Below, in pieces: positions 48,786 through 64,000 of a DNA stretch of 64,000 bases (its first letter is position 1; every line of letters starts with the position of its first letter). Below the pieces are notes generated by a model that saw only the letters and a list, made by a program, of their open reading frames with translations, did no database searches and was not told the origin of the DNA. Source of the DNA: an uncultured delta proteobacterium. Lineage in GTDB: Bacteria > Desulfobacterota > Binatia > Binatales > Binataceae. The DNA is taken from positions 1,984,001 through 2,048,000 of the forward strand of contig CAWJET010000001.1 of the NCBI GenBank assembly GCA_963842085.1, in the 5' to 3' direction. A program made the translations under genes and the position numbers.

Positions 48786-48863
48786 GGACGCATAGCTCAG
48801 CCCGGTTAGAGCGCTTGCCTCACATGCAAGAGGTCCCTGGTTCGAGTCCAGGTGCGTCCACCA
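48786..48863 (+). tRNA. tRNA-Val(CAC)
   Basis: Acceptor GGACGCA/TGCGTCC, anticodon arm CTTGC-CTCACAT-GCAAG, T-loop GGTTCGAGTCC, encoded CCA. Confidence 0.96.
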
Positions 48864-48873
48864 ATTAATTCAA

Positions 48874-50049
48874 CTAGTTAGGAAGATCTCGTTTTCCGAC
48901 CGCTGCAGATTGTGCCCAATTTTGTGCCCTGCTCGTTTGGTGGTCTTCCGCTCCAACGGCGGAAACCGCCTGATCGAGGGTCGCGATCGCGGCCTGTTTG
49001 GCGGAAATCCGAATGTGACTGTAACGTTCGAGCATCTTCCGGGAGACGTGCCCGGCTAGGGATCGAATCGTTTCTTCGCTGACGTTGGGGTTCTCAGCCA
49101 GGCGGGTGATGAACGTATGTCGGCAATCATGCCAGCGATATTGAACCTTGGCCCCCTTGCACGCGACCTTCCAAGCCTTTTTCCATTCACCGATTGGATG
49201 TGCGAGGTCGGCCCCATAGAACTTGGGGCGACGAGCGTTACCCTCTAAGCCGACCGAAAAGCGCGGAAATACATAACTGTCGGCTTCGGTTTCGAGAAAA
49301 CGCGACAACCACAGCGTCAGGACCGCACAGACTCTGGACGTGAGCGGTACGCTGCGTCCAGTGCCGGCTTCCGTCTTTGACTTGGGAACCGTGAGTGCGC
49401 CCTTCTCGATTACGCCGCTGCGCCACTCCAACATTAGATCGCGTCGGCGCAACGATCGTATCTCGGAAGCGCGCAGTCCACTGTCTAGGCTGACAATTAA
49501 CAAGGGGAGAAGGGCCGGCGAGCGGCTCTTCGCTGCTGCGTCTATGAGCTTCTTTTCATCTCCGCAACTAATCGCGCGCCCTACGTCGCGCCGCTCTCGA
49601 AGGCTCTTCACCTTGTCCGAAATGGCTCCCCACAGCCCGTGAGCCTTGAGGATTTGGCGCAATATGTTAATTTCGAAATTCACCGTACGCGCCGACTTCT
49701 GTTCCGCCAATCGCTTGCGTTGAAGAGCCGAGATGTCTTGGTCGTCGATGTCGCACACGAGCCGCTTTCCGAATTGTCCGGTGAGCGTCTCGACAAAATG
49801 CTCATATGCTTCGAGTGTATTTGCCGCGAGAGCCACTCGACTGGCCAACCATTCTTTCGCGGCAACCGAAAAGAGCGGCATCCGCTCGCGCTTTGGGATG
49901 CGATTAACCGCGAGCTCGATCTCGCGGCGACGAGCTCGTTCCGCTTCGCGGGCGACCGTCTTTGAGTTGGTCCTGGCCGATTCTCGAATGAGCTGCCCTT
50001 GGAACAGGAACTTGAACCAGTACGTCTCGCCCCGTTTGTAAACACTCAT
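48874..50049 (-). CDS. Tyrosine recombinase / integrase
   Basis: GLRASE, KSKT, HDCRH, GH, RYSH catalytic set; N-terminal arm-binding region. Confidence 0.95.
   Translation of the reverse strand: MSVYKRGETYWFKFLFQGQLIRESARTNSKTVAREAERARRREIELAVNRIPKRERMPLFSVAAKEWLASRVALAANTLEAYEHFVETLTGQFGKRLVCDIDDQDISALQRKRLAEQKSARTVNFEINILRQILKAHGLWGAISDKVKSLRERRDVGRAISCGDEKKLIDAAAKSRSPALLPLLIVSLDSGLRASEIRSLRRRDLMLEWRSGVIEKGALTVPKSKTEAGTGRSVPLTSRVCAVLTLWLSRFLETEADSYVFPRFSVGLEGNARRPKFYGADLAHPIGEWKKAWKVACKGAKVQYRWHDCRHTFITRLAENPNVSEETIRSLAGHVSRKMLERYSHIRISAKQAAIATLDQAVSAVGAEDHQTSRAQNWAQSAAVGKRDLPN
48910..48929. repeat. Putative integrase arm-type sites
   Basis: TTGTGCCC direct repeat at 48910-48917 and 48922-48929, near the att end. 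Confidence 0.5.
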
Positions 50050-50072
50050 CGCGTTAGCTCCCTGCGCAATCT

Positions 50073-50309
50073 TCAGGCCGCGCGATCGCTCGCCTCGGCC
50101 AGGTAGCGACGAACTTCGGTATCCAGCACGACTACGCGCCGTCCGAGATGTGCCGCTTTGAGCCGTCCGCGCTTGACCTCCAGTCGGATGAACGGCACCG
50201 AGACGCTGAGGCTGCGGGCTAGCTCGTCCAGGGTCCAGCCGAGTTTGGGGGTACTCAGCCTCTCAGAATCTGCGCCTTGAGCTTGGGAACTGACTTGAAC
50301 TACTGACAT
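50073..50309 (-). CDS. Excisionase-like HTH protein
   Basis: WTLDELARSLSVS...GRLKAAHLGRRVVV...YL; upstream of int. Confidence 0.8.
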   Translation of the reverse strand: MSVVQVSSQAQGADSERLSTPKLGWTLDELARSLSVSVPFIRLEVKRGRLKAAHLGRRVVVLDTEVRRYLAEASDRAA

Positions 50310-50366
50310 GATAACAAACACCTCGATCCATTGAGTGCGACGGTCATTTACCCATCGTCAAGCTGG

Positions 50367-50403
50367 ATCATAGACCAATTCTGATGGAATTGTCAAATTC
50401 CAT
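50367..50403 (-). promoter_or_regulatory. xis-int promoter with palindromic operator over the -35
   Basis: Minus strand TTGACA(50396-50391)-N18-TATGAT(50372-50367); ATGGAATT-N4-AATTCCAT at 50384-50403. Confidence 0.7.
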
Positions 50404-50427
50404 AATTCCGTTACGCATGGCCGGATT

Positions 50428-51099
50428 TCACGATTCGGTCAGCAGACCCAAACGCAGGAGCCGGACCCGTGCGGCCTGTTCGGAGACCTGGCAACCCCTC
50501 ATGATCCGTGTGATCACGGCACGGCCGGGCTTCGAATCGATGAACAGGGGGGACTTGCTCCCATCCCGCATCGCGATCTCACCGGCCATCGTGAGCACGT
50601 ACGACCGTGGCATCAGCAGCGCCCCGCTGATGTAAGCTGCCTGCCATTCCATCCAGTCGTTCTCGGGAGCGGTCACGATGGTGTCGCGTTCGCAGCGCCA
50701 TGAGCGCGCGGCGGGACGACGGTCAGAATCCCGCCCGGATTTTCTCCACAGCGGAGCGTGGAATCGCACGTGGCCATACTCATGGCCCAGAGTCATCCGG
50801 AGCCGGTTCTCATAGCGCGGCGAGGATAGGCGTTCAGAAATTTTCACCTTGGGATTACGGTCAGCAAAGTAGTCTGTGTATCCGTCTACGCTTTCAGGGA
50901 GGTCGGCATACAGGTCGAGGTCGTCGGCTTCGGCCTCGATCATGCGGATTATGTCGTCGGTGGGGATCGGAAGCCTGAAGCCGCCGGAGCGGTGGCCCAT
51001 AAACTCCGCGACGATTCGCTCGCATCGCTCGTCAAGCTCGTCGGCCTTGAAGTAAAGGCGATCGATCGGCCGTCCTAGCGGATCGCGAAGCACTTTCAT
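50428..51099 (-). CDS. ImmA/IrrE-family metallopeptidase
   Basis: R.RMTLGHEYGH, EWQA....GALLMP. Confidence 0.9.
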   Translation of the reverse strand: MKVLRDPLGRPIDRLYFKADELDERCERIVAEFMGHRSGGFRLPIPTDDIIRMIEAEADDLDLYADLPESVDGYTDYFADRNPKVKISERLSSPRYENRLRMTLGHEYGHVRFHAPLWRKSGRDSDRRPAARSWRCERDTIVTAPENDWMEWQAAYISGALLMPRSYVLTMAGEIAMRDGSKSPLFIDSKPGRAVITRIMRGCQVSEQAARVRLLRLGLLTES

Positions 51100-51425
51100 T
51101 TTCGCTTGCCCGGTGGTCTTACCCCCAGTGCCTTTCGGAACGCGCGGTAGGCGGCTTCGAGCCGTTCCTGGTCCGCCTCGGTCTTTACGTCAGGCGGCTG
51201 GCGGTTTGCGTGAAAGTACAGCACATCAGGCGAGACGCCGACAATCTTTGCCATCTGCTCGATCAGGTAGTCCTCTGGCGGATAGCGGTGATCATGCTCG
51301 ACCGCATTAAGATACGGAGGGTCCACTGGACGCCCGTCCTCGCGCTTCAAGCGCGCGGCAAGCTCTCTCTGCGTAAGCCCGGCCTTTTTCCGAGCGTCCC
51401 TAAGCACCTGACCGAAACTCTTCAT
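51096..51425 (-). CDS. XRE-family (ImmR-like) repressor
   Basis: FGQVLRDARKKAGLTQRELA...YLNAVE; ATGA-coupled to immA. Confidence 0.9.
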   Translation of the reverse strand: MKSFGQVLRDARKKAGLTQRELAARLKREDGRPVDPPYLNAVEHDHRYPPEDYLIEQMAKIVGVSPDVLYFHANRQPPDVKTEADQERLEAAYRAFRKALGVRPPGKRK

Positions 51426-51782
51426 TCAAGTTTATCAGCGCCAGCAACCGCCGCTCGCCGCCTCCTGCCGCTAAAGATTATCGGAATCTGCAAGAAAAGT
51501 CATCGAAAGCTACAATCTCAGAATTACAGAAATCCACAATGACAGACCAATCACGCCGGTATGATTACGTCCGCTTCCCCGCAGGGGCAGGACGCGCTTC
51601 TGTTCTTCGGGTAGCGCACCATTTTGAGGGCGCGCGCCCTTCACTCGAACCTGAGGGCGCGCGCTGGATTCCGAGTCGCGCGGAGCGAAACGCTGCATGG
51701 CGTGCCAAGCGAAGCGCCCGGCGTGAGCCGGTGGAACGCCGTGCCAGTGTAGCGAGCGTCACCGCTTTTGATTGCGAAGAGT

Positions 51783-54506
51783 CTACCTGCGAATGCCGTG
51801 CCCTCGACTGATACTCCGATGCTGTTCCGGCAAGATGGCAAAGCCGCGATTGGCAATAGAGGGACTCTCCAAAGCCATTGATTTCTCACGGCTTCGAGCT
51901 GCTGCCGGCGCAAGTCTGCTGCGGTCGTCCGTGAAGATCGCGACTGCGTGGCGGGCTCGGCTGATCGAGACATAGAACTGCTTGCGGTTGACCAGCTCGG
52001 GGGAGAGCCGGGTATCGATATCGACGATAACTCGATCGACCGTTGCGCCCTGCGCCGAGTGCGAAGTGGAGGCGTAGCCGTGGTCAATGTGGCGAAGACG
52101 ATCGAGCGCGGCGGTTATCTCCTTGCCGTTATCGAGCTGGATCACCGCACGCTGGGCATCGATGGATTTAATTGTGGCGAGTTCACCGTTCGCAACGCCG
52201 AGCGCCCGGTCGGGTGCCCGGAACTGTATGCGGTCGCCTCGTGCGATCGTGCGCTGCTCCTCGCGGAAGACTTCGACGCCGAAGAGTCTGGTGGGACTGT
52301 ACTCGATGCGATGGCCATCGGACCTCGTGACCGCGAGCATATTGGCATCGCGATCGACTGCTTCAACTCGCCCGTAGCTGCCCTTGGGAACCGCGAATTG
52401 TTTGCTTCCGCGCGTGAAGCGGATCACATCGCCTTCTTCGTAGTTGTAGGCCATCGCTCGTTGGGCGCCGGATAGCCCGCGATTTACGAGGATCGCATGC
52501 TCCTTCCCGACGAACGGTATATGGCCACGGACGATCAGCTCAGACCGAATCGCTTTGTTGAGTTCGCGACGCTCCTGGTTCGCCGGGCTGACGACCAGAA
52601 CGCGCTGTCCTGATTCATATGCGGCGGCGTATTCTCTGGCGATCTGCTTGCGTCTCTGTTCGACGTTCGCGACTTCGCGGATATCACCACGGCGGTCGAG
52701 GATCGCAAGGGACTCGGGGATCTCGCCTTTAGACGCTAGCGTAACGGCTATGCGGAGCTCGGGATCGCGCTGGCGGCGGATGGTATCGAGGCGGGTGACC
52801 AGCATGCCAGCCTCTTGCATTTGATAGATCGGTCGTCCGGCTTCGATCGCGTGATGCTGGCGCTGGTCGCCGACGAAGATGATCCGCTCGATGCCTTCGT
52901 CGCGTGCCTTGTGGAGGAGCCGGTTGACCTGCCGGGTCGGGAGTAGGCTCGACTCGTCAACAATCCATATCTTTTTCGTTTGCGCATCCGGTGATTGGCC
53001 TTCGAGGAGGCTGGCGACAGTTCTTGCGGAGACGCCTGCCTCGGAAAGCGACTTGACCGCACGCGTCGTTGGCGCGAACCCGTAGACCGCGTAGCCCTGC
53101 TCTTCCGCGAACTCGCGAATCGCTCCGACAGTGGTCGTTTTCGCAGCGCCCGCGCGGCCTTCGATTGAGGTGATCCAGTCGGTGGACTCAAGCGTGAGTC
53201 CGGCGGCGACAGTCTGATCAGGAAGCAAGTTGCGCTGGCTCGCCCATCGGCGGATCTCGGTTGAACTGCCGATAGTGGCGGCCCTGCCTTGGCCCGCACG
53301 CATCAGGTCGATGTTCCCGCGCTCAAGGGCGATCATCTCCGGCGTCGTGTAGGCGCCTCGCGGTGAGTTCACGGAGTCGCCGGCGACGATCAGCCGGCCG
53401 TTTCGCTGGAACCGCTCGCGCTCAGCGCGTATCGAATGAAGGTCCGCCTGCCCCATCGCATGCTGCAGTGCCTTCGCTTCAAGTGCGCGGCGATCAATGA
53501 CTGCCTCGCGCTCGCTGTTTTCGTCGATACTCTGGCGAATGGCTTCTTCCGCCGTCTCCGGATGTCGAAACTGGATGGGACCGCGTTCGCGCGATTGCGA
53601 CAACAGACGCTCGACTTCGATTCCATACTGCAGCGCGCGTGAGCGCCATTCCGCCTTGAGGCTTTCTTCATCGCGATGATCTTTCGACAGTCTGGTCCGA
53701 TGCGCGATGATCTGCGCCGCCTCGGCACCCGCCAGCCCCTCACGCGCAAGCGTCCGTTCGATGTCCTGGCGACGACGGGAGAAGGCCATCACCTGCTCGC
53801 GTGTGTAGCCGTCAACCTCCCATCGCCCGTCATGGCCCGCGACCCGGATTTCGTATCCGAGTTGTTGAACCTGTCGGGCTAGTTCAGAGCGGTAAACTGC
53901 CGTGGCAAAAGCTTGCGCGCGATAGATTTCAATGGGATCGAGGCCGCGCCACCGTCCGTCCGGGCGGCGGGTCATGTTGGCGATGACGACGTGCGTGTGA
54001 AGGTGAGGGTCGGGACCGTAGCCGTCTTTAACTCCGCTGGCGGGCCGAGCGGCAATGTGATCGAAGCGCGCGGCGACTATATTGCTGGCCGCGACCCATT
54101 CGCTGCCGCCTCGGCGTCGCGAGAGCGCGTATTGTTCGAGCTCCTCCAGTGCGCGACTGACTGCCTGACGGTGCGCCTCGATAAGGCGGTGATCGTCTCC
54201 GACCAGCCCCTGGATGCTGACCGACTTCGGCGCGTTGAAGGTCGCGTCCCAGCCAGCGCGCCGGTCGTCGTAGCCGTTGGCCTTATGAACGAGCACCTCG
54301 CCGGACGCGGGACGAAGCCCACGCAGTACGGCGTGGAAGTCCTCGGTCGCGACGTCGCCGGAGAGTCCCAGCTCCTCAGCGCCGCGGCCGAACCATTGCC
54401 CGACTACGCTCTGCTTCTCCGAGTAATAGTCGTCGTGCGAGTACTTCTCCTCGTAATAGGTCTCGGCCTGAGCGGCGGTGAGCGCGCCTTTGGACATTAC
54501 CAGCAT
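51783..54506 (-). CDS. MOBF (TrwC-like) relaxase-helicase
   Basis: YY...DDYY, DATFNAPKSVS, PHLHTH, GRAGAAKTT, VDES, GD..QH, TSHSAQGAT, YVSISR. Confidence 0.95.
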   Translation of the reverse strand: MLVMSKGALTAAQAETYYEEKYSHDDYYSEKQSVVGQWFGRGAEELGLSGDVATEDFHAVLRGLRPASGEVLVHKANGYDDRRAGWDATFNAPKSVSIQGLVGDDHRLIEAHRQAVSRALEELEQYALSRRRGGSEWVAASNIVAARFDHIAARPASGVKDGYGPDPHLHTHVVIANMTRRPDGRWRGLDPIEIYRAQAFATAVYRSELARQVQQLGYEIRVAGHDGRWEVDGYTREQVMAFSRRRQDIERTLAREGLAGAEAAQIIAHRTRLSKDHRDEESLKAEWRSRALQYGIEVERLLSQSRERGPIQFRHPETAEEAIRQSIDENSEREAVIDRRALEAKALQHAMGQADLHSIRAERERFQRNGRLIVAGDSVNSPRGAYTTPEMIALERGNIDLMRAGQGRAATIGSSTEIRRWASQRNLLPDQTVAAGLTLESTDWITSIEGRAGAAKTTTVGAIREFAEEQGYAVYGFAPTTRAVKSLSEAGVSARTVASLLEGQSPDAQTKKIWIVDESSLLPTRQVNRLLHKARDEGIERIIFVGDQRQHHAIEAGRPIYQMQEAGMLVTRLDTIRRQRDPELRIAVTLASKGEIPESLAILDRRGDIREVANVEQRRKQIAREYAAAYESGQRVLVVSPANQERRELNKAIRSELIVRGHIPFVGKEHAILVNRGLSGAQRAMAYNYEEGDVIRFTRGSKQFAVPKGSYGRVEAVDRDANMLAVTRSDGHRIEYSPTRLFGVEVFREEQRTIARGDRIQFRAPDRALGVANGELATIKSIDAQRAVIQLDNGKEITAALDRLRHIDHGYASTSHSAQGATVDRVIVDIDTRLSPELVNRKQFYVSISRARHAVAIFTDDRSRLAPAAARSREKSMALESPSIANRGFAILPEQHRSISRGHGIRR

Positions 54507-56329
54507 CAGTCCTGAATCCTCACCGGGACGCCCGCGGTCCCGTTGGGAGGCGTCGGGCCGCGACTGATCGTCAGCGCCGCCAAATCGGCGCTGGGCTCAT
54601 CGCTGACCGGCCTCGGAAGAGCGCGCGGAATGAACTCGACCTGCCGCCGGCGCGGAAGGCACGGCTTCACTTTGACGCGGGCGCGATCGAGTCCGGCGAT
54701 GCAGAGATAGCCTTCCAGCTTCGGCAGCCGCTGGATCTCGGAGGCCATGACGACCGGCTCGGTCCGGCGCGTCGGATGGACGTTGAACCGATTGCCGTGC
54801 TCGGCGGTGCTCATTCCGATCTCCTCGCGCAGTGCCTCACGGTCGCCGATCTGCCGCGCGATGAAGGCGGCCGTCTCGGGCTCATCAACGCGCAACAGGA
54901 GCTTGGTCGAGGGCATCGAGGCGAGCACCGCTGCCTGCTCGTGGCCATAGATCCGGCGCAACTGAGCGATACTTTGGAAGCCGAGAACGGCGGCGAGTCC
55001 GCGCTTTCGGCCACGCGTGACCAGCGTCTCGAGCTTCGCCTGACGGCCAAGCACCGGCAGCTCGTCCACCATGATCCAGACCCTTCGGCGATCGCTGGCG
55101 GAGTTGAGCATGCGGCCTACAACGAGGTCGAGCCAGAGGTTCGCGAGCGGCAGCGCCGCCGAGCTGGACTCGTCGCGCATCGTCACGAACAGCCATCCTT
55201 CCGAATGCTCGGTCCATTCAAGCGCGCTCCACAGCGGTCGCCCGTCGGCGGGCGGCAGATAGAGGAATGGTCTGGTCGCGTTCGCAACGGTCGCAATGAT
55301 CCCTGCTCCCTGCTCGTGTGCTCCGGGGTCGATCAGACTGTATGCCGGCGTGCCGGAGAGCGCCTGCTTCAACTGATCGCGAGTGAGTTCGAGCAGCTTC
55401 GGGATGCTCTGCGGCTCTCGGGAGGCCGCGACCTGAAGCAGGCTTTCGAGCAGCGTCCGGCTGGATTGACGGAAGAAGTGATCGGACCCGCTTTCGTAGC
55501 CGCGCGGGGCTTCGGGAATGAGCGAAGCGGCGAGCGTCGCCGCGTCAGCCTGGTAGTATCGTTCGCTCAATTCCAGCCACGGTGACCAGTACGGACAGCG
55601 TTCATCGACCGGGTTCAGGATAAGGTCTCCGCGCACGGGTCGATAGAATTCCGAGACGTATTCGCACTCAGGATCGACCACGATCGCAAGCTCTCCGCGC
55701 ACCTGGATCTGGCGAAGGAGCGAGCGGATCGCCATCGACTTCCCGGCTCCCGTCGCGCCGGTGATGAGGAAGTGTTCGCACTCGGTCGAGCGCGGAATGC
55801 GAACCTGGGCGAGCTCGACTCCCGCCCGTTCGCTCCGCAATTCGGTGCGGCGAAGTTCTCGGGCGAGCCGGCGCGGCGGGATCAACGTGAGGCCTCGCAG
55901 ATGCTTCCCCTCTGAACGGTCCTCGGGATCACGGAAGAGGAGATAGCCGAGAGCGGCGAGAGTTATGGTTGCCGGGACCGCTCCCCATACGCTGTAAGAG
56001 GCGAACCACTGTCCGAATGAGCGCCCCAGATAGAAGCGCCAGTTGAGGTAGAGATACATGCTGCCGATCGTCGCACGTCCGCCTCGGTACGGGAGCGACA
56101 GAAAATAGAGCGGGACTTTCTGAGTGAAGAACCAGGCGAGAATCCAGCGGCCGAAGTATTGATGCGCGCCGGGTCCTGAGACGCGGCCGGTCCAGTACCA
56201 GACGAAGAAAAGGTCGGAAGCCGCCCAGATCAGAATCCAAAGCAGCAGGATTCGAAGATAGAGGCGCAGCAGCGTCGCGGCTGAACCGCAACTCAATTCG
56301 TATCTGATGGCGGTTCGTGACAAATTCAT
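54506..56329 (-). CDS. Type IV coupling protein (TrwB/TraD-like)
   Basis: N-terminal TMs, GATGAGKS, VDP, VDELP, GRKRG...LGFQ. Confidence 0.93.
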   Translation of the reverse strand: MNLSRTAIRYELSCGSAATLLRLYLRILLLWILIWAASDLFFVWYWTGRVSGPGAHQYFGRWILAWFFTQKVPLYFLSLPYRGGRATIGSMYLYLNWRFYLGRSFGQWFASYSVWGAVPATITLAALGYLLFRDPEDRSEGKHLRGLTLIPPRRLARELRRTELRSERAGVELAQVRIPRSTECEHFLITGATGAGKSMAIRSLLRQIQVRGELAIVVDPECEYVSEFYRPVRGDLILNPVDERCPYWSPWLELSERYYQADAATLAASLIPEAPRGYESGSDHFFRQSSRTLLESLLQVAASREPQSIPKLLELTRDQLKQALSGTPAYSLIDPGAHEQGAGIIATVANATRPFLYLPPADGRPLWSALEWTEHSEGWLFVTMRDESSSAALPLANLWLDLVVGRMLNSASDRRRVWIMVDELPVLGRQAKLETLVTRGRKRGLAAVLGFQSIAQLRRIYGHEQAAVLASMPSTKLLLRVDEPETAAFIARQIGDREALREEIGMSTAEHGNRFNVHPTRRTEPVVMASEIQRLPKLEGYLCIAGLDRARVKVKPCLPRRRQVEFIPRALPRPVSDEPSADLAALTISRGPTPPNGTAGVPVRIQD

Positions 56330-56664
56330 ATAGCTCTTCTCCTGAGCCTGCGCATGTACTGCTCGGCTTCTTGTTGCGCAGTCTGGCGGATCTGATCGGT
56401 CGCCTCGGAGCCGACCTGGTGGTCAAGCAGATGCTGGAGCGTGAGGCGGGTGCGGGTGAGATCGAACAGAATCTGATCGAGGCTTGGGCGTTGGTTTGAT
56501 TCGTCGATCGGCCCGCCGAGGCGAGGGCGACCATCTCCACCGAAGTGCTCAGCGAGTACTGCGCGGATCAATTTGCGCGGCGCAATTCCTCTGTCCCGCG
56601 CGATTTTCTCAATCCGCTCCAACAGCTCCGGCGCCAGGCGGACGGTATATGGAATCTCCGGCAT
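56326..56664 (-). CDS. Ribbon-helix-helix relaxosome accessory protein (TrwA-like)
   Basis: YTVRLAPELLERIEKIARDRG...LIR; coupled upstream of the T4CP. Confidence 0.7.
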   Translation of the reverse strand: MPEIPYTVRLAPELLERIEKIARDRGIAPRKLIRAVLAEHFGGDGRPRLGGPIDESNQRPSLDQILFDLTRTRLTLQHLLDHQVGSEATDQIRQTAQQEAEQYMRRLRRRAI

Positions 56665-56690
56665 CGGACTACTCTTCTTTTTCCTTCAAA

Positions 56691-56893
56691 GCGTACACGC
56701 CGTACACGTCAATGAATCCGGGGCCTTAGGCTGACGTGCTTCGCACGGGTGGGCGCGCCGTACACGCTCTCGTGTACGAAAAGCGCCCGCGGTCACGCCA
56801 CTTTCCGATGGGCCGTGTACGCTCTGGTACACATCGTTCATCCAAAGGGATGAGTGACGTGTCAGTCGTAAACACGTGCGAAGCACGTCAGCC
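56691..56893. promoter_or_regulatory. Candidate oriT
   Basis: Perfect 19-bp IR (56729-56747 / 56875-56893) and multiple CGTACACG/CGTGTACG iterons upstream of RHH-T4CP-relaxase. Confidence 0.6.
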
Positions 56894-56912
56894 GGTACCT
56901 CGATGATGCAAG

Positions 56913-57185
56913 TCACGGTTGAGTCTCGGCGCTGCTGTTGGAAGAAGGCAGAGCGGGGACGCGGCGTGGCTGATTGTCAGCGGAGCGCGACCACGACTGG
57001 AACTCACGGTCTGCGTCGAGAAAGGCGCGGAGAATCTCGGCGATGAGCGAGCGAATATCCACCGACTCGCCGTGAACGTGCTCGTAATATTGGGCGTAAC
57101 GTTCGAGGGTTGCATTCAGGTCGCCGGCGAGCATGACGCGGACCTGAATGGAGCGAAGGGGTTTGATGATGCGTGCGAGTTTCAT
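56913..57185 (-). CDS. DUF2274-like protein
   Basis: DL...L..YA..Y....G......LI..IL..FL..DR.F pattern; GGAGG RBS. Confidence 0.7.
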   Translation of the reverse strand: MKLARIIKPLRSIQVRVMLAGDLNATLERYAQYYEHVHGESVDIRSLIAEILRAFLDADREFQSWSRSADNQPRRVPALPSSNSSAETQP

Positions 57186-57221
57186 AGTGACCTCCACAAA
57201 ATTGGTCTCTGGAATGATTCG

Positions 57222-57536
57222 TCAGAATGGAAAGAGATAAGACAGGAAGCGGACGGCGATGAGCGCAGCGGAACTCGCGAATCCGCCAACCAACAAACGT
57301 CCCGCGAATTGCCTGCTTCCAAGCGCGTACAGGATTGCCGAGCAGGCAAAGTTCAGGACGATCGCGGCGTGAGCCAACGGACCGGCGATGATGTCCTGCA
57401 GGGCAGTCAGCGTCTGGTCCCAAGGCAAAGCGCCGGCACTAGTCGCAGCAAAGCACGGGCTGCCCTGCACGAGGAGGGCGGTGATCATGCTGACGATCAG
57501 CAGAGTGAAAGTTGGACCCTCAAATGTTTTGTTCAT
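57222..57536 (-). CDS. TrbC/VirB2-family conjugative pilin
   Basis: Signal peptide, LPWD..L..LQ..IAGPLA, two TM segments. Confidence 0.8.
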   Translation of the reverse strand: MNKTFEGPTFTLLIVSMITALLVQGSPCFAATSAGALPWDQTLTALQDIIAGPLAHAAIVLNFACSAILYALGSRQFAGRLLVGGFASSAALIAVRFLSYLFPF

Positions 57537-57600
57537 TGGAACTCCCGGACTGCAAAAAAGCTGCCTGTCGAGCAACGTGTGTCTACATGGCTGTAAGAAG

Positions 57601-57629
57601 TAATTACGAAATTACGTAATTCATGTCAA
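57601..57629 (-). promoter_or_regulatory. Putative transfer-operon promoter/operator
   Basis: Minus strand TTGACA (57629-57624) next to a perfect palindrome AATTACGTAATT (57610-57621) and an extra AATTACG half-site; -10 not convincing. Confidence 0.5.
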
Positions 57630-57926
57630 GAGCGACGATCGGAGGACTATCGTCGGGCGCGCTCGCTCGATGCTAGCCGGTTGTTGCACCTTCATCGCTC
57701 GCGGGTGTCTTGCCTGTAGGGGTGCCGAGTCCTACGATTTCGTAGGTTGCTCGTCTTTGATGGCGGGGGAGTTCGCCTGCGCACTCCTGACTGGTCTGCG
57801 CCTTATCAATAAGCGAGCATTGGACAAGAAGGATGCGGGGCCGACCATCCAGCGCCTCAGAGTCCACTTTGAAGCGCTGCGATACACGCCGAACCCCATA
57901 AGACCGCTCGACCAGTGGAGATCGTC

Positions 57927-60755
57927 ATGACGCCCGAAGAATCACCGCCGATGCCTCCTTCGACATTGCAGGCTCGCCGCGGGTGGCTCCGGGATGCGCT
58001 GGGTCTAATGGGAAACGATGCTCCCTTCCCGTGGCAGGAAGAGCTGTTGCGTTGCTTCATGCAGGGGGAAATTCCCCCAGCGCTCGACATTCCGACAGGT
58101 CTCGGGAAGACGGCCGTCATGGCGATATGGCTTGTCGCTCGGGCGTCCGGCGCGAGGCTGCCGCGGCGGCTCGTCTACGTAGTGGATAGGCGTGCCGTGG
58201 TGGATCAGGCCACGGAGGAGGCCGTGAAGCTCCGCGAGTTTGTCGATCAGGTTACGGACTTTAGGCATCGGCTCGACCTCAAGGAAGGGCGCTCGCTTCC
58301 AATCTCCACGCTCCGCGGTCAACACGTCGATAACAAGGAATGGCTCGAAGATCCGGTGTCATCCGCGATCATCGTCGGAACTGTGGACATGGTCGGATCG
58401 CGGCTGCTGTTTGAGGGCTATCGGGTCTCGCGAAAGATGCGGCCGTACCATGCCGGCCTTCTTGGAGCTGACGCCCTGATCGTGCTCGACGAGGCTCACC
58501 TCGTCCCGCCGTTTGAGGAGCTTCTGCGAGCGGTCGCCGAGGATGTGGCGTTCCGCCCCGGGGACCTGGAGTTGCGAAAGGTCGTTCCTGCGTTCAAGCT
58601 TCTGCCGCTGTCGGCCACGGGACGTACCGTCGATGCCGGGGTCTTTGGCCTCACACCCAAGGATTTGGAGAACAAGATCGTGAAGAAGAGGCTGGACGCG
58701 AAGAAGCACCTCGGCATCGTGCCGCTCAAGCACGATGCGAAGCTGGAAGAGGAGCTCGCGCAGCGAGCTTGGGATTTGTCGTGCGACGGGCAAAGCACGA
58801 TGCGGTGCATCGTGTTTTGCAACGAGCGTCGGGTCCTTGAGAAGGCGAAAGGGGCCGTCGAGAAGCTGGCAAAGGGTGACAAGAAAGCGGGGAAGGCCGC
58901 TACGGAAATCGACACCGAGCTACTTGTCGGGGGCCGGAGGGTGTTCGAGCGCGAGCAAGCCAGGGAGCGACTGAACGAGCTCGGCTTTGTAGCCAGCAGC
59001 AAGGCGGAGCGAAATCGGCCAGCATTCCTCTTCGCGACGTCGGCTGGGGAGGTGGGCATTGACCTCAATGCCGACCACATGTCGTGCGACCTCGTAGCTT
59101 GGGAGCGAATGGTGCAGAGATTCGGCCGTGTAAACAGACGCGGTACTGGCGAGGCGCGTGTGGTCGTGCTGGTCGAGCCAGAACCGCGGCCCAACAAGAA
59201 AGAGGCAGAAGCACTCAAGAAGCAGAAGGATGGCGAAGAGCTGGACGAGAAAATGCAAAAGTTGGTCGCGGCCTACGAGACAAGAATCAAAACCTGGCGG
59301 GCCGTTCAAGCACCGCTCAAAGAGCTTCCGAAGAACAGTGAGTTCCTGAATGCGAGTCCTGGCGCGTTGCGGGATCTGAGGACGCGCGCGCAGACCGACC
59401 CGAAGCTGCGAGAGATTCTGGATGCGGCAACTAGCCCAGCACCGTTGCGACCGACGCTTTCACGGGCGTTGGCCGACGCTTGGTCGATGACTTCGCTCAA
59501 GGAACACACGGGCCGTCCTGCGATTAACCCTTGGCTACGGGGATGGATTGAGGACGAGCCTCCACAGACGGCGATTGTGTGGCGGACGCATCTACCCCTG
59601 CGCGTAGGGGGAGCCCCACCAACGTGCAGCGAGATCGAGACGTTTTTCGAGGCCGCGCCGCCACACACGAGCGAGATATTGGAGACTGAGACCTTTCGCG
59701 TCGTCGAGTGGCTGGAGAAGCGGGCCGAAGCTCTACTCTCGTCATCATCAGTAATAGCGCAGGAAGGTGATGCGCGAATGCCGGCGGTGTCGAGAGATTC
59801 GGTTGTGGCTTTTATGCTCGCGCCAGACGGCGATCTGCGCGGGACGCGGAGACTCGGAGATCTAATCGTTTCGAAGGACAAGAACGGCAAGAAGGCTCTT
59901 CAGGATACTCTCGCGGGGGCGACGCTACTGCTTGATGCGCGCTTAGCAGGCTTGAAGGACGGACTTCTGAACGACGAGGAAGGCGCAACTCCCAAGACCG
60001 CTGACGACGGTGACGAATGGCTCGGGCAGGGGGTGGTTCGATTTCGTGTGCGGAGTGCCGACGCGGGCGCAACTCCAAGCAGCGGCGGGCAATGGTACGA
60101 GCGGCTGCGGTTCGCAACCGACATTTCCGAAGACGGCGAGCCGCAACGCTGGCTAGTCGTCGATAAAATGCGTCACGACGCCGCGACCGAAGAAGATCGT
60201 TCGGCGGGACATCCACAGTTGCTCGACGAGCATCAGTCTTGGGCCGAGGGTAAAGCCCGTGCGCTCGCAAAGGCTCTCGGCCTCGATGACTATGGTGAGA
60301 TGCTCGCCGTCTCCGCGCGGTTCCACGACGAAGGCAAGCGCGCTAAGCGGTGGCAGCGATCCTTCAACGCCCCGACTGATGGCGTTTACGCGAAAACTGA
60401 GGGCCCGATTAACTACTCCCTTCTGGACGGGTATCGACATGAGTTAGGCTCGCTGCCCTCTGTGGAGAAGAATGAGCGTTTCCTCGCCTTACCTCCTGAC
60501 CAACGCGAGCTAACGCTTCATTTGATCGCCGCGCACCATGGCTTTGCTCGCGCGGTGATTGGAACGGATGGATGCGAGGATGTGCCACCTTCGAAATTGC
60601 AAGAACGAGCCCGCGAAATCGCGTTGCGCTTTGCGCGACTGCAGCACCGTTGGGGGCCATGGGGGCTGGCGTGGTGGGAATCGCTGTTGCGCGCGGCCGA
60701 TCAGCAGGCTTCACGCGATAACAATGCCAAGATCCCGAGGAAGTATAGAGGCTGA
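57927..60755 (+). CDS. cas3: Type I-G (I-U) Cas3 helicase with C-terminal HD nuclease
   Basis: PFPWQ, IPTGLGKT, PRRLVYVVDRRAVVDQ, DEAH, SAT, QRFGRVNR; C-terminal EH..HDEGK..RHE..HHG..AD. Confidence 0.96.
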   Translation: MTPEESPPMPPSTLQARRGWLRDALGLMGNDAPFPWQEELLRCFMQGEIPPALDIPTGLGKTAVMAIWLVARASGARLPRRLVYVVDRRAVVDQATEEAVKLREFVDQVTDFRHRLDLKEGRSLPISTLRGQHVDNKEWLEDPVSSAIIVGTVDMVGSRLLFEGYRVSRKMRPYHAGLLGADALIVLDEAHLVPPFEELLRAVAEDVAFRPGDLELRKVVPAFKLLPLSATGRTVDAGVFGLTPKDLENKIVKKRLDAKKHLGIVPLKHDAKLEEELAQRAWDLSCDGQSTMRCIVFCNERRVLEKAKGAVEKLAKGDKKAGKAATEIDTELLVGGRRVFEREQARERLNELGFVASSKAERNRPAFLFATSAGEVGIDLNADHMSCDLVAWERMVQRFGRVNRRGTGEARVVVLVEPEPRPNKKEAEALKKQKDGEELDEKMQKLVAAYETRIKTWRAVQAPLKELPKNSEFLNASPGALRDLRTRAQTDPKLREILDAATSPAPLRPTLSRALADAWSMTSLKEHTGRPAINPWLRGWIEDEPPQTAIVWRTHLPLRVGGAPPTCSEIETFFEAAPPHTSEILETETFRVVEWLEKRAEALLSSSSVIAQEGDARMPAVSRDSVVAFMLAPDGDLRGTRRLGDLIVSKDKNGKKALQDTLAGATLLLDARLAGLKDGLLNDEEGATPKTADDGDEWLGQGVVRFRVRSADAGATPSSGGQWYERLRFATDISEDGEPQRWLVVDKMRHDAATEEDRSAGHPQLLDEHQSWAEGKARALAKALGLDDYGEMLAVSARFHDEGKRAKRWQRSFNAPTDGVYAKTEGPINYSLLDGYRHELGSLPSVEKNERFLALPPDQRELTLHLIAAHHGFARAVIGTDGCEDVPPSKLQERAREIALRFARLQHRWGPWGLAWWESLLRAADQQASRDNNAKIPRKYRG

Positions 60756-60758
60756 CCG

Positions 60759-61715
60759 ATGGCGTCGATACCAGTTGACCTCTTCAACCCCGGCCAGGTA
60801 TTCGCGTGCGTGGGCTTCCTTGAGGCGGCGGAGGTTCTTCTTGGTGATGCGATAGGAGGGTTCGACTGGCGATACGAAGAACACGTGCGATTCGAGCTTA
60901 GCTCACGTGGCGAAAGAAATCCTTTCGACGTTGTGCTTGGTTTCCTTGCGGAAGCCGACATCTGCTGCCGCGTGCCCGTCGGGTACGCCAATTCGCTACC
61001 CGTGTCCAAGCGCCGTAAAGGGCGCAAGGACGACGGCGAATCGCAGGAAGAAGACGACAGCGACCTGTTCGATCGAGTCGAGGCTGAGGACACGTTTCCG
61101 GGTCCTAAAGGCGATCCGATGGCTTTACCCATACGCTTGGTCGCACCGATTGACGGACGAACCCGAACACTTTGCATCGGGCATTGGGCCGACGCTTCGA
61201 GCCGGAACGACTTCAAGTTGTACGCCGGTAACCGTTCCGCTGCGACGATTGCACGCGCGATGCTTCGCGGCACTCGCGAGAAACCGAAGAAGGGGGAAAT
61301 GAAAGGGGCCGTAAGGACGCGGGGCATCGATTCACTGTGGAATTCACGCGAGGAGTTGGTTGCAAACCCGTTCGATGTACTCACGCCCATGGGCGGGAGT
61401 TTTAACTTCGATCCTCGTGGTGCCTGGATCGCGATCGATGCAGGATATTCTCCAAACGACCATAAGCATGTGGTGTCAGCGTCCCCGGTCGTAGAGATAC
61501 TCGCAGCGGTGGGTATGGAGCACGCGCGCCCGGATGAGTACGAGACGCGGCGCGTTCGCTATGGTGCCTGGGGCGGTCTCGTACCCCCCATTCTTGCGCG
61601 AGCAGCCTTGGGCTGCGCTCGTATCGGAATCCCCCTTCGGACATTCCAGTTCATGCTCGATCTATCGGGCAAGAACAAGGTCGTAACGATCGCTAAAGAG
61701 GAGATAAGCGGATGA
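60759..61715 (+). CDS. csb3: Type I-G large subunit Cas8g (Csb3)
   Basis: IPVDLFNPGQVFAC.GFLEAA, FKLYAG, FDPRGAW..ID.G.S, VEILAA.G; lies between cas3 and csb1. Confidence 0.85.
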   Translation: MASIPVDLFNPGQVFACVGFLEAAEVLLGDAIGGFDWRYEEHVRFELSSRGERNPFDVVLGFLAEADICCRVPVGYANSLPVSKRRKGRKDDGESQEEDDSDLFDRVEAEDTFPGPKGDPMALPIRLVAPIDGRTRTLCIGHWADASSRNDFKLYAGNRSAATIARAMLRGTREKPKKGEMKGAVRTRGIDSLWNSREELVANPFDVLTPMGGSFNFDPRGAWIAIDAGYSPNDHKHVVSASPVVEILAAVGMEHARPDEYETRRVRYGAWGGLVPPILARAALGCARIGIPLRTFQFMLDLSGKNKVVTIAKEEISG

Positions 61716-62983
61716 CCACCGAGTTGGAGATCGTGAGCGCGGAGGTTCTGGACAGATGGGCGATTGAGATGAAGGGGCCGGTGGCGCTGCATCTCAAGCA
61801 GAAGCTTCTTCCGGTCGAAGTCGACGGTAGCATCATCTTCCCCCCGACATATGCCGACATTGGTTACAACATCGATGCATTATCGGACGGAACGCGCATC
61901 GCCACGATAGACAGTGTTGGATCGCAGGCCAATCGGCTGGAGCCGATCTTCAAGGCGACGGCGGGAACAAAACGCGACGAGTGGCTGGTGCCGCAGATCG
62001 AGATCGTCCTGCGCACAGAAGAGTGCGGTGAATGCGATGCATGCAAAACCGCCAAGGCGGAAAACGACCAGAACGCAAAAAAGAAGAAGGGCCAGTGCGC
62101 AAGCCCGCATAAAGTAACGCGATCGATCCTTGACCTGGCGCACCGGGGGGCCGATGCGGTCGTTCAGTCTTGCCCCGGACTGGCATCGCTGGTCGGAGAG
62201 GCGTTTCAGAAGCTCCGCAGCGCCGGAGACGCGGGTCTTCTTTGCGAGATCGTTCCGACGTCGCTCGTGTTCGGAGTGTGGGACTCTCGTGGCGGGAGCG
62301 GTGAGAAGCGTCCGCGGCTCGTGCGCTCTATCATCCGCGCGTGGGACGTGGACCCTCTCCACGCGGCGGCGCAGTTCAACTCCATCTCGAAAGCTCTCGA
62401 CCAAAATCAGCGCGAGGAGTTGGAGAAGGAAGCAAAGGCTAAGAAGGTCGAATTATCGGCGAAAGGCTTCAACGATGCCCCTGCGACTTTTCGCAAGGTA
62501 GGCACAAACGCCGCAAAGTACATGCAGGAGTTCCGGGATGGATCTCCAAATCCGGAGCGCCGCGTGCTTGGTGGCGTGGTCGCGAGGGGCCCGATCGAAC
62601 GCCAAGTTACCGTGAATCTCGTGGCGTTGCGGGGCTTGCGCGGCAGGGACAACACTGAAACCGAGCACATCCGGAAATACCTCCTCGGCTTGTCGCTCGT
62701 TGCCGCCACTGCGGACATTGACCTGTTCCTCCGCGAGGGCTGCCATCTGAGATATGCGAGCGAAGATGAATGGTACAACATACCGCGACGCGGAGAGCCG
62801 GTTGCATTCAAAATAAAAGACTCGGCAAGAGAGTACGCAAAGGCGGCGACGAATCACTTTCGAGAAGCGTGGCAAAAGAGGTGGCCGAAAGACGAGAACA
62901 TAGAGTACCGCTTCGATCTCAACGAGGCGAAGAAGCTTCTCGCTAAGAAGACAGAGGAGGAAAAAACGCCCGAAGAACCTTGA
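61712..62983 (+). CDS. csb1: Type I-G Cas7 backbone (Csb1)
   Basis: IFPPTYA, IDSVGSQANRLE, HR.AD, P.SLVFGVWDS, LREGC.L. Confidence 0.93.
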   Translation: MTTELEIVSAEVLDRWAIEMKGPVALHLKQKLLPVEVDGSIIFPPTYADIGYNIDALSDGTRIATIDSVGSQANRLEPIFKATAGTKRDEWLVPQIEIVLRTEECGECDACKTAKAENDQNAKKKKGQCASPHKVTRSILDLAHRGADAVVQSCPGLASLVGEAFQKLRSAGDAGLLCEIVPTSLVFGVWDSRGGSGEKRPRLVRSIIRAWDVDPLHAAAQFNSISKALDQNQREELEKEAKAKKVELSAKGFNDAPATFRKVGTNAAKYMQEFRDGSPNPERRVLGGVVARGPIERQVTVNLVALRGLRGRDNTETEHIRKYLLGLSLVAATADIDLFLREGCHLRYASEDEWYNIPRRGEPVAFKIKDSAREYAKAATNHFREAWQKRWPKDENIEYRFDLNEAKKLLAKKTEEEKTPEEP

Positions 62984-62986
62984 GAC

Positions 62987-64000
62987 ATGTCTACCGCGAT
63001 CCTCATAAGTGTACGGCTCCACGACGGACGTTATTATGGCGTGCCAGATTGGCCGCCAGCGCCGGCGCGGCTGTTCCAGGCGCTTTTGGCCGGTGCGGGC
63101 TTGAGCGGGCCGTCCGGAAAGGCGGAGTTAGAAGCGCTGCTTTGGCTGGAGAATAAGTGCGAGAATGAAGCGCCCATTATTGGTGCTCCAGCAGCTTGGC
63201 GCGGCCAGCAAGTAATGTTCTACATGCCGAACAACGATCTCGACCGGGTCGGAGGTGATCCGCATCGGCTGGCCGAAGTGCGCACTGCGAAGAAATTCTT
63301 CAGGCCCTGCATTTTCGATGCGGAAGTTCCGTTCCTATACGTTTGGCCCATTTTCGAAAGCGAAGAACGCGGGCCGCATGTGCGCGTAATCTGCGCGCTC
63401 TCCGAGCGGCTATATCAACTAGGTCGCGGCGTTGACATGGCTTGGGCCTGGGCCGAGTTGCTCGATGCTTCTAGACTCGAAGAGGTTTTGTCGAACTATC
63501 GAGGCCGCATCTACCGACCGTCAAATAGAGGGAGCCAACGTACGCTCGCGTGTCCCACCGCAGGCTCTCTCGATAGTCTTGCAGCGCGCTATCGGGCCTA
63601 TAGCCGGCGTTTCGAGTCAGTGGCCGAGGACAAGAAGATCAACCGGGTCTTCACAAAGGCACCGAGGCCGAGATTTCGGCCAGTAGCATATGAGAGCCCG
63701 CCGTCTAGGCGCGTTTACGAACTTCGCGGGCCGTCCGGCTCTGCACCGTTCGTCCCATGGTCGTTAGTCCGCGCGTCAGAACTTATCGAGCATGTGCGGG
63801 ACCGCGCGCTCGAACGCCTCCAGCGGGCACTCCCGTCGAGAACGGAGGAAATTGCTCGCGTGCTCGTGGGCCGCAAGCCCGACGGCTCTAGCGACGGACC
63901 GATCGATGCGCGAGTGCGACTTGTCCCCTTGCCTTCGGTTGGGCACCATCATGCCGATCGCGGCATCAGGCGCGTTTTGGTGCAGGTCCCAGCAGATTGC
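62987..64000 (+). CDS. csb2: Type I-G Cas5/Cas6 fusion Csb2 (partial, runs off the window)
   Basis: MSTAILISVRLHDGRYYG..DWPPAPARLFQALLAG, YMPNND.D, QLGRGVDMA, PLPSVGHHHAD. Confidence 0.92.
   Translation, partial: MSTAILISVRLHDGRYYGVPDWPPAPARLFQALLAGAGLSGPSGKAELEALLWLENKCENEAPIIGAPAAWRGQQVMFYMPNNDLDRVGGDPHRLAEVRTAKKFFRPCIFDAEVPFLYVWPIFESEERGPHVRVICALSERLYQLGRGVDMAWAWAELLDASRLEEVLSNYRGRIYRPSNRGSQRTLACPTAGSLDSLAARYRAYSRRFESVAEDKKINRVFTKAPRPRFRPVAYESPPSRRVYELRGPSGSAPFVPWSLVRASELIEHVRDRALERLQRALPSRTEEIARVLVGRKPDGSSDGPIDARVRLVPLPSVGHHHADRGIRRVLVQVPADC

Follow-up and report, generated by a model that had tools for sequence, protein, structure and literature searches.

A 28-kb tRNA-Val-integrated element, probably mobilizable, carrying a complete type I-G CRISPR-Cas gene set in an uncultured delta proteobacterium

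Borders and gene content of the element

A 64,000-nt stretch of DNA from an uncultured delta proteobacterium (G000:C1:1984001-2048000, hereafter the window) was analyzed, where a tRNA-Val(CAC) gene is followed by integration and mobilization genes and by a type I-G CRISPR-Cas operon that continues past the window end. The genome assembly comprises 4.93 Mb in 2 contigs and is 100% complete. A further 40 kb of the contig past the window end was also read, and coordinates above 64000 are given as window equivalents (C1 position minus 1,984,000, or L003 coordinate + 63,000). Genes were identified with Pfam and NCBIfam profiles, defense genes with PADLOC models, and tRNAs with ARAGORN. The region delimited below is probably an integrative and mobilizable element (IME) of 28,269 bp, integrated at the 3' end of the genome's one tRNA-Val(CAC) gene and carrying a defense island as its cargo.

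The tRNA-Val(CAC) gene (48786..48863, + strand), the integration target, is the only tRNA gene of the window and the sole tRNA with a CAC anticodon in the genome. Its last 45 nt and the next 12 nt form the left attachment site, attL (48819..48875), of which a repeat search identified an exact direct copy, attR, at 77088-77144 (C1:2061088-2061144, L003 14088-14144). The two copies are identical over 57 nt and are spaced 28,269 bp apart. No further copy of the repeat was found at 14 nt or more in the 4.93-Mb genome and none lies inside the element; the one other partial match to the att core genome-wide is of 26 nt, at C1:1497361. Past attR, the chromosome continues with genes for cytochrome b561, Memo, and RlmD. 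An earlier reading of the window from its letters alone (the sequence-only reading) had claimed integration at this tRNA, and had assumed that the cas genes lie inside the element. The first claim is borne out by the copy of the tRNA-Val 3' end, and the assumption can now be replaced by an observation, since attR lies not upstream of cas3 but past the cas operon, the array, the PD-(D/E)XK/Dam pair, and the AbiE genes. The extension of the contig that it had proposed as a check recovered attR, the array, cas2, and cas4/cas1, all past the window end.

Unoccupied versions of the site were found in a set of 47 genomes of the genus, which includes G000 and in which the unpublished G018 and G023 were counted only as members. 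In at least six congeners (G003, G005, G007, G011, G014, and G020), the tRNA joins the right-flank DNA directly, and the junctions of G003, G007, and G020 were read base by base. Other congeners contain inserts of about 1.3, 2, 8, 13, and 41 kb at tRNA-Val, and the site is therefore a hotspot of insertion.

The left part of the element is a mobilization backbone encoded on the - strand. Next to attL lies the gene of a tyrosine integrase of 391 aa (48874..50049; PF00589, E 1.3e-15), which has an HxxR motif (HDCR at 307) and the C-terminal Tyr, followed by that of an excisionase-type HTH_17 protein (50073..50321; PF12728 with 28.6 bits, TIGR01764 with E 1.4e-5). Overlapping genes encode an ImmA-like M78 metalloprotease (Peptidase_M78; 50428..51099; PF06114, E 5e-7, HEYGH at residue 106) and an ImmR-like XRE-family repressor (51096..51425; HTH_31/HTH_3), and the nearest PADLOC models of this pair are CapH/CapP. 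The relaxase is a 907-aa fusion of a MobF (TrwC-type) relaxase and an SF1B helicase (51783..54506; PF08751 with 287 bits, NF041492 with 262 bits at a cut-off of 100, AAA_30 with 157 bits). A His-rich HLHTH stretch and N-terminal tyrosines are both present, as in the MOBF domain layout, and the best plasmid match, on Acidisarcina and Granulicella plasmids, is 41% identical. The next two genes encode a type IV coupling protein (T4CP) of the TrwB/TraD type (54506..56329; PF10412 with 304 bits, Walker A GATGAGKS) and, in the TrwA position, a small ribbon-helix-helix (RHH)-like protein (56326..56664), the latter a weak assignment from RHH_1 and CopG matches with E 1e-3 and 6.5e-3, below the gathering scores.

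Upstream of the RHH gene, the non-coding block 56829..56895 contains a hairpin and is kept in all four paralogous backbones of the genome, among which the intergenic DNA flanking it has diverged. This block is a candidate origin of transfer (oriT). About 130 nt of sequence upstream of the RHH gene (window 56691-56822) contain five copies of the motif GTACACG/CGTGTAC, against a background of 0.09 per kb in C1, and a perfect inverted repeat of 18 nt (56729-56746 and 56876-56893) frames these copies. The motif cluster is absent from the three paralogous elements of the genome, and the motifs may be binding sites for the element's own accessory protein.

Beyond the candidate oriT lies a conserved backbone gene for a DUF2274 protein (56913..57197, - strand; PF10038 with 44.7 bits), with 64-67% identical copies in the three paralogous elements. 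It is followed by the gene of a borderline TrbC/VirB2 pilin-like small membrane protein (57222..57575, - strand; PF04956 with 27.8 bits at a cut-off of 27.9), of which a homologous open reading frame (ORF) in the paralogue E2 scored 26.8 bits. The two genes may be left over from an ancestral integrative and conjugative element (ICE) of the Trb type, or their products may interact with a helper pilus. An ORF on the opposite strand (56919-57596, +) was judged spurious, as it is antisense to DUF2274 and its paralogue matches mirror the DUF2274 gene. Additionally, metagenome contigs of X4, X6, and X7 skip 172-175 nt at window 57427-57600 (L002 9428-9601), in the pilin-like ORF and upstream of it; the matches flanking this gap are just 31 nt long, and the contigs may derive from related elements.

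All mobilization ORFs are full length and open, with the expected motifs present in the relaxase, the coupling protein, the integrase, and the M78 protease. Among all ORFs annotated between attL and attR, no full mating-pore set was found, and the only genes related to a type IV secretion system (T4SS) were the TrbC/VirB2-like ORF and DUF2274. Because the mobilization genes are open with their motifs and no mating-pore genes lie inside, the region is best described as an IME with defense cargo. This agrees with the earlier description of the element as mobilizable, for which a relaxase, a coupling protein, an integrase, and an excisionase are all present. The backbone genes named in that description were all located where it had placed them; its RHH protein is a weak match, and its oriT, which was no observation of its own, corresponds to a candidate block.

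The type I-G block is divergent from the backbone and occupies the + strand. It opens with cas3g, encoding a helicase with a C-terminal HD nuclease (57915..60755; TIGR02621 with 575 bits at a cut-off of 400), followed by cas8g2, or csb3 (60759..61715; TIGR04106 with 162 bits at a cut-off of 125), and cas7g, or csb1 (61712..62983; TIGR02570 with 88 bits at a cut-off of 38, and PF09617). The csb2 gene encodes a Cas5-Cas6 fusion of 737 aa (62987..65200, leaving the window at 64000; TIGR02165 with 339 bits at a cut-off of 45), the C-terminal residues 530-730 of which match the Cas56g model of PADLOC. The adaptation genes are cas2 (65209-65538; PF09827 with 67 bits) and a cas4g/cas1g fusion (65550-67376; NF049935 with 746 bits at a cut-off of 560). 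A leader of 180 nt (67377-67556) precedes a CRISPR array of 82 repeats of 36 nt and 81 spacers (67557-73479). The repeat folds into an 8-bp hairpin; 81 repeats are identical, and the cas1-distal one has one change. The spacers are 35-40 nt in length, with a leader-proximal spacer of just 16 nt (67593-67608; L003 4593-4608), and spacers 60 and 61 are the same sequence (71871-71980; L003 8871-8980).

The gene set of type I-G is full, including Cas3g, Cas8g2, Cas7g, Csb2, Cas2, and Cas4/Cas1 with an adjacent array and leader, and from the start of cas3 to the end of the array it takes up 15.6 kb, or about 55% of the element. In an alignment of the Cas3g of G000 with 78 relatives, the HD positions H773, H804-D805, K808, H842, H869, H874-H875, and D929 show the same residue in 79 of the 79 sequences. 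Helicase motifs I, II, and VI were likewise recognized, and the protein has the consensus residue in 110 of the 112 helicase columns with at least 95% conservation. Judged by its genes, the block is a complete type I-G system and apparently a functional one. The sequence-only reading had recognized cas3, csb3, csb1, and csb2, their divergence from the backbone, and the intact HD motifs of Cas3, with all of which the profile matches and the alignment agree; the array and the cas1, cas2, and cas4 genes that it had found missing from the window lie just past its end.

Other defense cargo follows the array. A PD-(D/E)XK_11 protein (73852-74265, - strand; PF20472 with 52 bits) without a PADLOC match is encoded beside a Dam-family D12 methyltransferase (74269-75087, - strand; TIGR00571 with 191 bits), the best PADLOC model of which is an orphan methyltransferase with 247 bits. 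The methyltransferase is clear and its neighbor matches no restriction endonuclease model of PADLOC, and the two form a putative, unproven pair resembling restriction-modification. A second Dam-family methyltransferase, 64% identical to that of the element, is encoded on the second replicon (G000:C2:1485313-1486113). Next to attR, an AbiEi regulator (75380-76003, + strand; PADLOC, 209 bits) and an AbiEii nucleotidyltransferase (76000-76881, + strand; PADLOC, 292 bits) are encoded by adjacent genes with a 4-nt overlap, as expected of an AbiE pair, a type IV toxin-antitoxin system.

Related elements and distribution of the type I-G system

Elements at the same tRNA were found in three other species of the genus (G006, G059, and G051), with integrases 95-96% identical and the same backbone order, and all three are without the cas block. 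DNA homology to these siblings extends from attL to window 57713, ending 200 bp before cas3. In G006 and G059 it restarts at 75344, in abiE, and runs on to attR. As the left backbone and the abiE-attR end are common to G006 and G059, both ends belong to one element type. In place of the cas-array block, G006 and G059 contain a 12.5-kb segment with FRG, APH-like, BacA, rhodanese, AhpC, and SCO1 genes, which is flanked by two lone CRISPR repeats (G006:C1:19567-19601 and G006:C2:185906-185939; G059:C4:1565508-1565542 and G059:C4:1552943-1552976, the latter two 12.5 kb apart). The lone repeats are of the same family as those of the array, with the same stem and 3' handle and a different loop. An imperfect 15-nt direct repeat, CCAGAGGATTTTAAG, is located just inside each lone repeat of G006 and G059.

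This layout would fit an insertion into the one spacer that was left, and the simplest history for G006 and G059 would be an ancestor that lost its cas genes and most of its array, followed by the insertion. That the array itself is a site of cargo exchange in this IME lineage, and the immune system a module that is lost and replaced, is a doubtful extension of this history, which also draws on the mosaic make-up of the system described below. If it were true, the repeats would be recombination handles for cargo swapping, and the element could turn its 81 spacers on rivals for the tRNA hotspot or for a helper.

The genome holds four related backbones, including that of the studied element. The three paralogous backbones (C1:3013636-3044199, C1:1248877-1257623, and C1:1299630-1309159) comprise ImmR/ImmA, DUF2274, a T4CP, a MobF relaxase, and an integrase; immR-immA is located beyond DUF2274 in the paralogues and between xis and the relaxase in the studied element. 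The paralogue E2 is inserted at tRNA-Asn, is about 30.5 kb in length, and has a 78-nt repeat, 91% identical, at its two ends. Its cargo is not defensive and includes a sulfatase, a split FadL, a two-component system, and an OmpA-family gene. Thus the same backbone carries different cargo in E2 and in the studied element, and the cargo is variable in this family. The paralogue E4 is decayed, with a frameshifted relaxase and a truncated T4CP.

A possible helper is encoded in the same genome, where the sole matches to VirB4, TrbL, and TrbI fall in one VirB/Trb-type T4SS cluster at 5-20 kb of C1. The cluster (G000:C1:5000-20000) includes VirB3, VirB4, TrbL, VirB8, VirB9/CagX, TrbI, a TraF peptidase, TraD, and a VirD4-type T4CP, and is flanked by an insertion sequence, HipA, and an HNH gene. 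No relaxase was noticed around it in the 40 kb annotated.

The cas genes are patchily distributed in the genus. A Cas3g homologue was found in three of the 47 genomes, G000 included, and the other two were only 39% and 30% identical. The presence of the cas locus in strains lacking the element, which the sequence-only reading had named as grounds for rejecting its proposal, was not observed: 44 of the 46 other genomes, those with the empty site included, had no Cas3g match. Among species-representative genomes, the 78 closest Cas3g loci were at most 62% identical and were distributed over many phyla, including archaea, and the effector genes were at most 62-69% identical to any of these relatives. 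Relatives of Cas3g were also found on 23 of 72,556 plasmid records, with a best identity of 40%.

A second type I-G locus in the genus is located at G056:C21:449822-461920, with a similar repeat and a tRNA-Glu gene 5 kb upstream; no backbone gene was found within 20 kb of it. Compared with G000, its Cas2 is 87% and its Cas4/1 82% identical, whereas the effectors Cas3, Cas7, and Csb2 are just 24-48% identical. The adaptation genes are close and the effectors divergent, and the type I-G system of the element is therefore a mosaic, in which effectors of a clade with members in many phyla appear combined with an adaptation module and a repeat native to the genus. The comparison with G056 points to a shuffling of modules between the adaptation and interference parts. 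Two repeat remnants were found elsewhere in G000: a half-repeat (20 of 22 nt of the repeat 3' part) beside a 45-aa PD-(D/E)XK fragment at G000:C1:3233409-3233863, with ordinary chromosomal genes around it, and a lone degenerate repeat with six mismatches on the second replicon (G000:C2:1262815-1262850). These remnants may stem from earlier copies of the module.

Metagenome runs, of which X1 may be the source sample, were available as contigs only. The DUF2274-cas3 stretch was present in seven runs of two studies. The junction between the backbone and cas3 was bridged by one 2,284-nt X1 contig (L002 8869-11152) with zero differences, and the cas genes were covered by zero-difference contigs in runs of two studies. 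The order beyond the array was also recovered with the same repeat family in other contigs, where an array is followed by PD-(D/E)XK and Dam in L103 and L104 (proteins 84-94% identical) and by abiEi in L111.

Proposed life cycle and alternative explanations

A life cycle can be proposed from the gene families of the element. The ImmR-like repressor would keep the element silent, and the ImmA-like protease would lift the repression upon stress or a helper signal. Int and Xis would then recombine the 57-nt attL and attR into a circle. The MobF relaxase would nick oriT between the RHH gene and DUF2274, and the coupling protein of the element would connect the relaxosome with the mating pore of a conjugative element of the VirB/Trb type in the same cell. 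In the recipient, Int would insert the element at tRNA-Val, restoring the tRNA 3' end, and the recipient would acquire a ready adaptive immunity with 81 spacers as well as innate defenses. The AbiE pair may also stabilize the element.

Several results weigh against a mobile element that spreads a type I-G immunity directed at its competitors. The matching of spacers to other sequences, proposed earlier as a check, was run against phage, plasmid, and genus sequences and yielded no convincing protospacer, and so none that would bear on the competition with helper elements proposed in the sequence-only reading. No self-target was found for the 81 spacers in their own genome, where the longest match was of 23 nt with a gap, and no spacer matched any of 50,697 INPHARED phage records. 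In PLSDB (72,556 plasmid records), only spacer 45 had a match, at 33 of 35 nt with E 0.01 on three Sinorhizobium medicae megaplasmids, which was treated as chance-level. In the 47 genomes of the genus, where six candidates per genome were scored and sensitivity was accordingly limited, spacer matches fell mostly on the repeat and none covered a whole spacer cleanly; the only match spanning a whole spacer in the genus was that of spacer 58 in G061, an 81-nt alignment with 75% identity that includes the flanking repeat. Similarly, a comparison of the spacers with the 12 metagenome contigs in which this repeat family occurs yielded no match for any of the 81.

Other results in the same direction concern the mobility of the element. 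No attP or attB form of it was found in the metagenome contigs of four runs (attL through cas4/1). Loose contig ends at L002 864, at the tRNA end, and at L002 820, at the repeat start, were considered as excision products and rejected, as their sequences are unlike the attR side and belong to other contexts. Two of the three closest siblings have a damaged relaxase, which is fragmented in G006 and contains up to six TGA codons in one matched stretch in G051. The sibling backbones are 77-94% identical at the nucleotide level, a range that brackets the 80-86% identity of the flanks, and these mixed identities therefore allow no conclusion on horizontal or vertical spread within the genus. Backbone genes were found within 10 kb at none of the 78 closest Cas3g loci in a tblastn search with the proteins of the element, a search that would miss unrelated recombinases. 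The RHH and TrbC assignments are weak, at or under the Pfam thresholds. Finally, the VirB11-like match of the T4SS cluster lies in an open frame of just 196 aa, and the candidate helper may therefore be defective.

Much of this evidence would also fit an immobilized genomic island, which arrived as an IME and is now stuck for want of a working helper or through faulty regulation, such that the CRISPR-Cas system would be an ordinary chromosomal defense locus. The single T4SS cluster with its short VirB11-like frame and no relaxase noticed in the annotated 40 kb, the fragmented relaxases of G006 and G051, the frameshifted relaxase and truncated coupling protein of E4, and the lack of an excised form among the metagenome contigs are all in its favor. 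In contrast, the mobilization ORFs of the studied copy are all full length with intact motifs, its att repeats are identical over 57 nt, and an incoming plasmid could supply the helper. Immobilization is accordingly considered unlikely, and a mobilizable element is preferred.

It is very improbable that two tandem islands, an int-relaxase module and a block of cas genes, array, and AbiE, landed side by side and left only the outer att copies. The hotspot character of the tRNA-Val site and the end of sibling DNA homology 200 bp before cas3 would fit such an event, but no third copy of the att core was found inside the element, the only other partial match being the 26-nt one at C1:1497361. Moreover, the left backbone and the abiE-attR end are both found in G006 and G059, where they enclose lone repeats of the same family, which indicates that the two ends travel together. 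An assembly artefact joining an IME to an unrelated CRISPR locus, to which four paralogous backbones could have misled the assembler if the genome is metagenome-derived, is hardly credible for a 100% complete assembly of 2 contigs in which the junction is bridged by the 2,284-nt X1 contig with zero differences, the cas genes have zero-difference coverage in runs of two studies, and the array-PD/Dam and array-abiE synteny recurs in other contigs.

Comparison with known systems

The mobilization and regulatory modules of the probable IME resemble those of well-known elements. The trwABC genes (Dtr, for DNA transfer and replication) of the IncW plasmid R388 encode, in this order, a small RHH protein, the TrwB coupling protein, and the TrwC relaxase-helicase. 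The operon order is the same in the studied element, with the candidate oriT upstream of the first gene; unlike in R388, the module is chromosomal and integrase-linked, and has no mating pair formation (Mpf) genes. In ICEBs1, the ImmR repressor and the ImmA protease form a regulatory switch. Similarly, an XRE repressor gene overlaps a gene for an M78 HExxH protease beside int-xis in the studied element, although the homology to the ICEBs1 pair is at the domain level only. No paper pairing DUF2274 with a relaxase was found in the collection of papers searched.

Compared with characterized type I-G systems, as described in the accessible parts of two studies (PMC9638904, PMC10504553), the element encodes the same components, including a Cas3g with a C-terminal HD domain, Cas8g2, Cas7g, a Csb2 of the Cas5-6 type, Cas4/Cas1, and Cas2. 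It differs from them in that cas2 precedes cas4/1. No paper tying type I-G to an IME was found in a partial search of the literature.

The cargo of the element is comparable to that of other IMEs. According to the accessible part of a survey of 6,331 IMEs, 31% carry a defense gene, and IMEs average 27 kb in size (PMC10201445). The studied element resembles such defense-loaded IMEs in its size, its tRNA-type integration, its multiple defense systems, and its restriction-modification-like and abortive-infection cargo (PMC10201445). The most frequent IME defenses named in that part of the survey are restriction-modification, CBASS, and Thoeris, and not CRISPR-Cas (PMC10201445), whereas the studied element carries a type I-G system.

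CRISPR-Cas systems have already been reported on ICEs and IMEs, for example the type I-C systems on ICEs of Pseudomonas aeruginosa, and in the accessible part of the same study types I-C and IV-A3 are described as enriched on mobile genetic elements (MGEs), with a bias of CRISPR-Cas to MGEs of more than 100 kb (PMC9841420). As in those cases, the whole locus studied here is located in a chromosomally integrated element with an integrase and a relaxase (PMC9841420). Unlike the ICE- and IME-borne I-C or IV-A3 systems described there, the present one is of type I-G, in an element of 28 kb that is about 55% CRISPR-Cas, has no mating pore, and resides in an environmental host (PMC9841420). The presence of CRISPR-Cas on mobile elements is already known, and the present case is clear rather than unprecedented, leaving the general understanding of CRISPR-Cas or of IMEs unchanged. 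With both of its borders known, it exemplifies how adaptive immunity can be packaged for horizontal transfer in a small element that would need only a borrowed mating pore, and in which the type I-G system and the mobilization genes form a compact, self-contained unit. The siblings with and without the cas block provide a natural series for the gain, loss, and recombination of CRISPR modules on mobile elements. Compared with the surveyed bias of CRISPR-Cas to MGEs of more than 100 kb, as given in the accessible part of that survey (PMC9841420), the element indicates that 28 kb of an IME suffice to hold a complete class 1 system and its large array.

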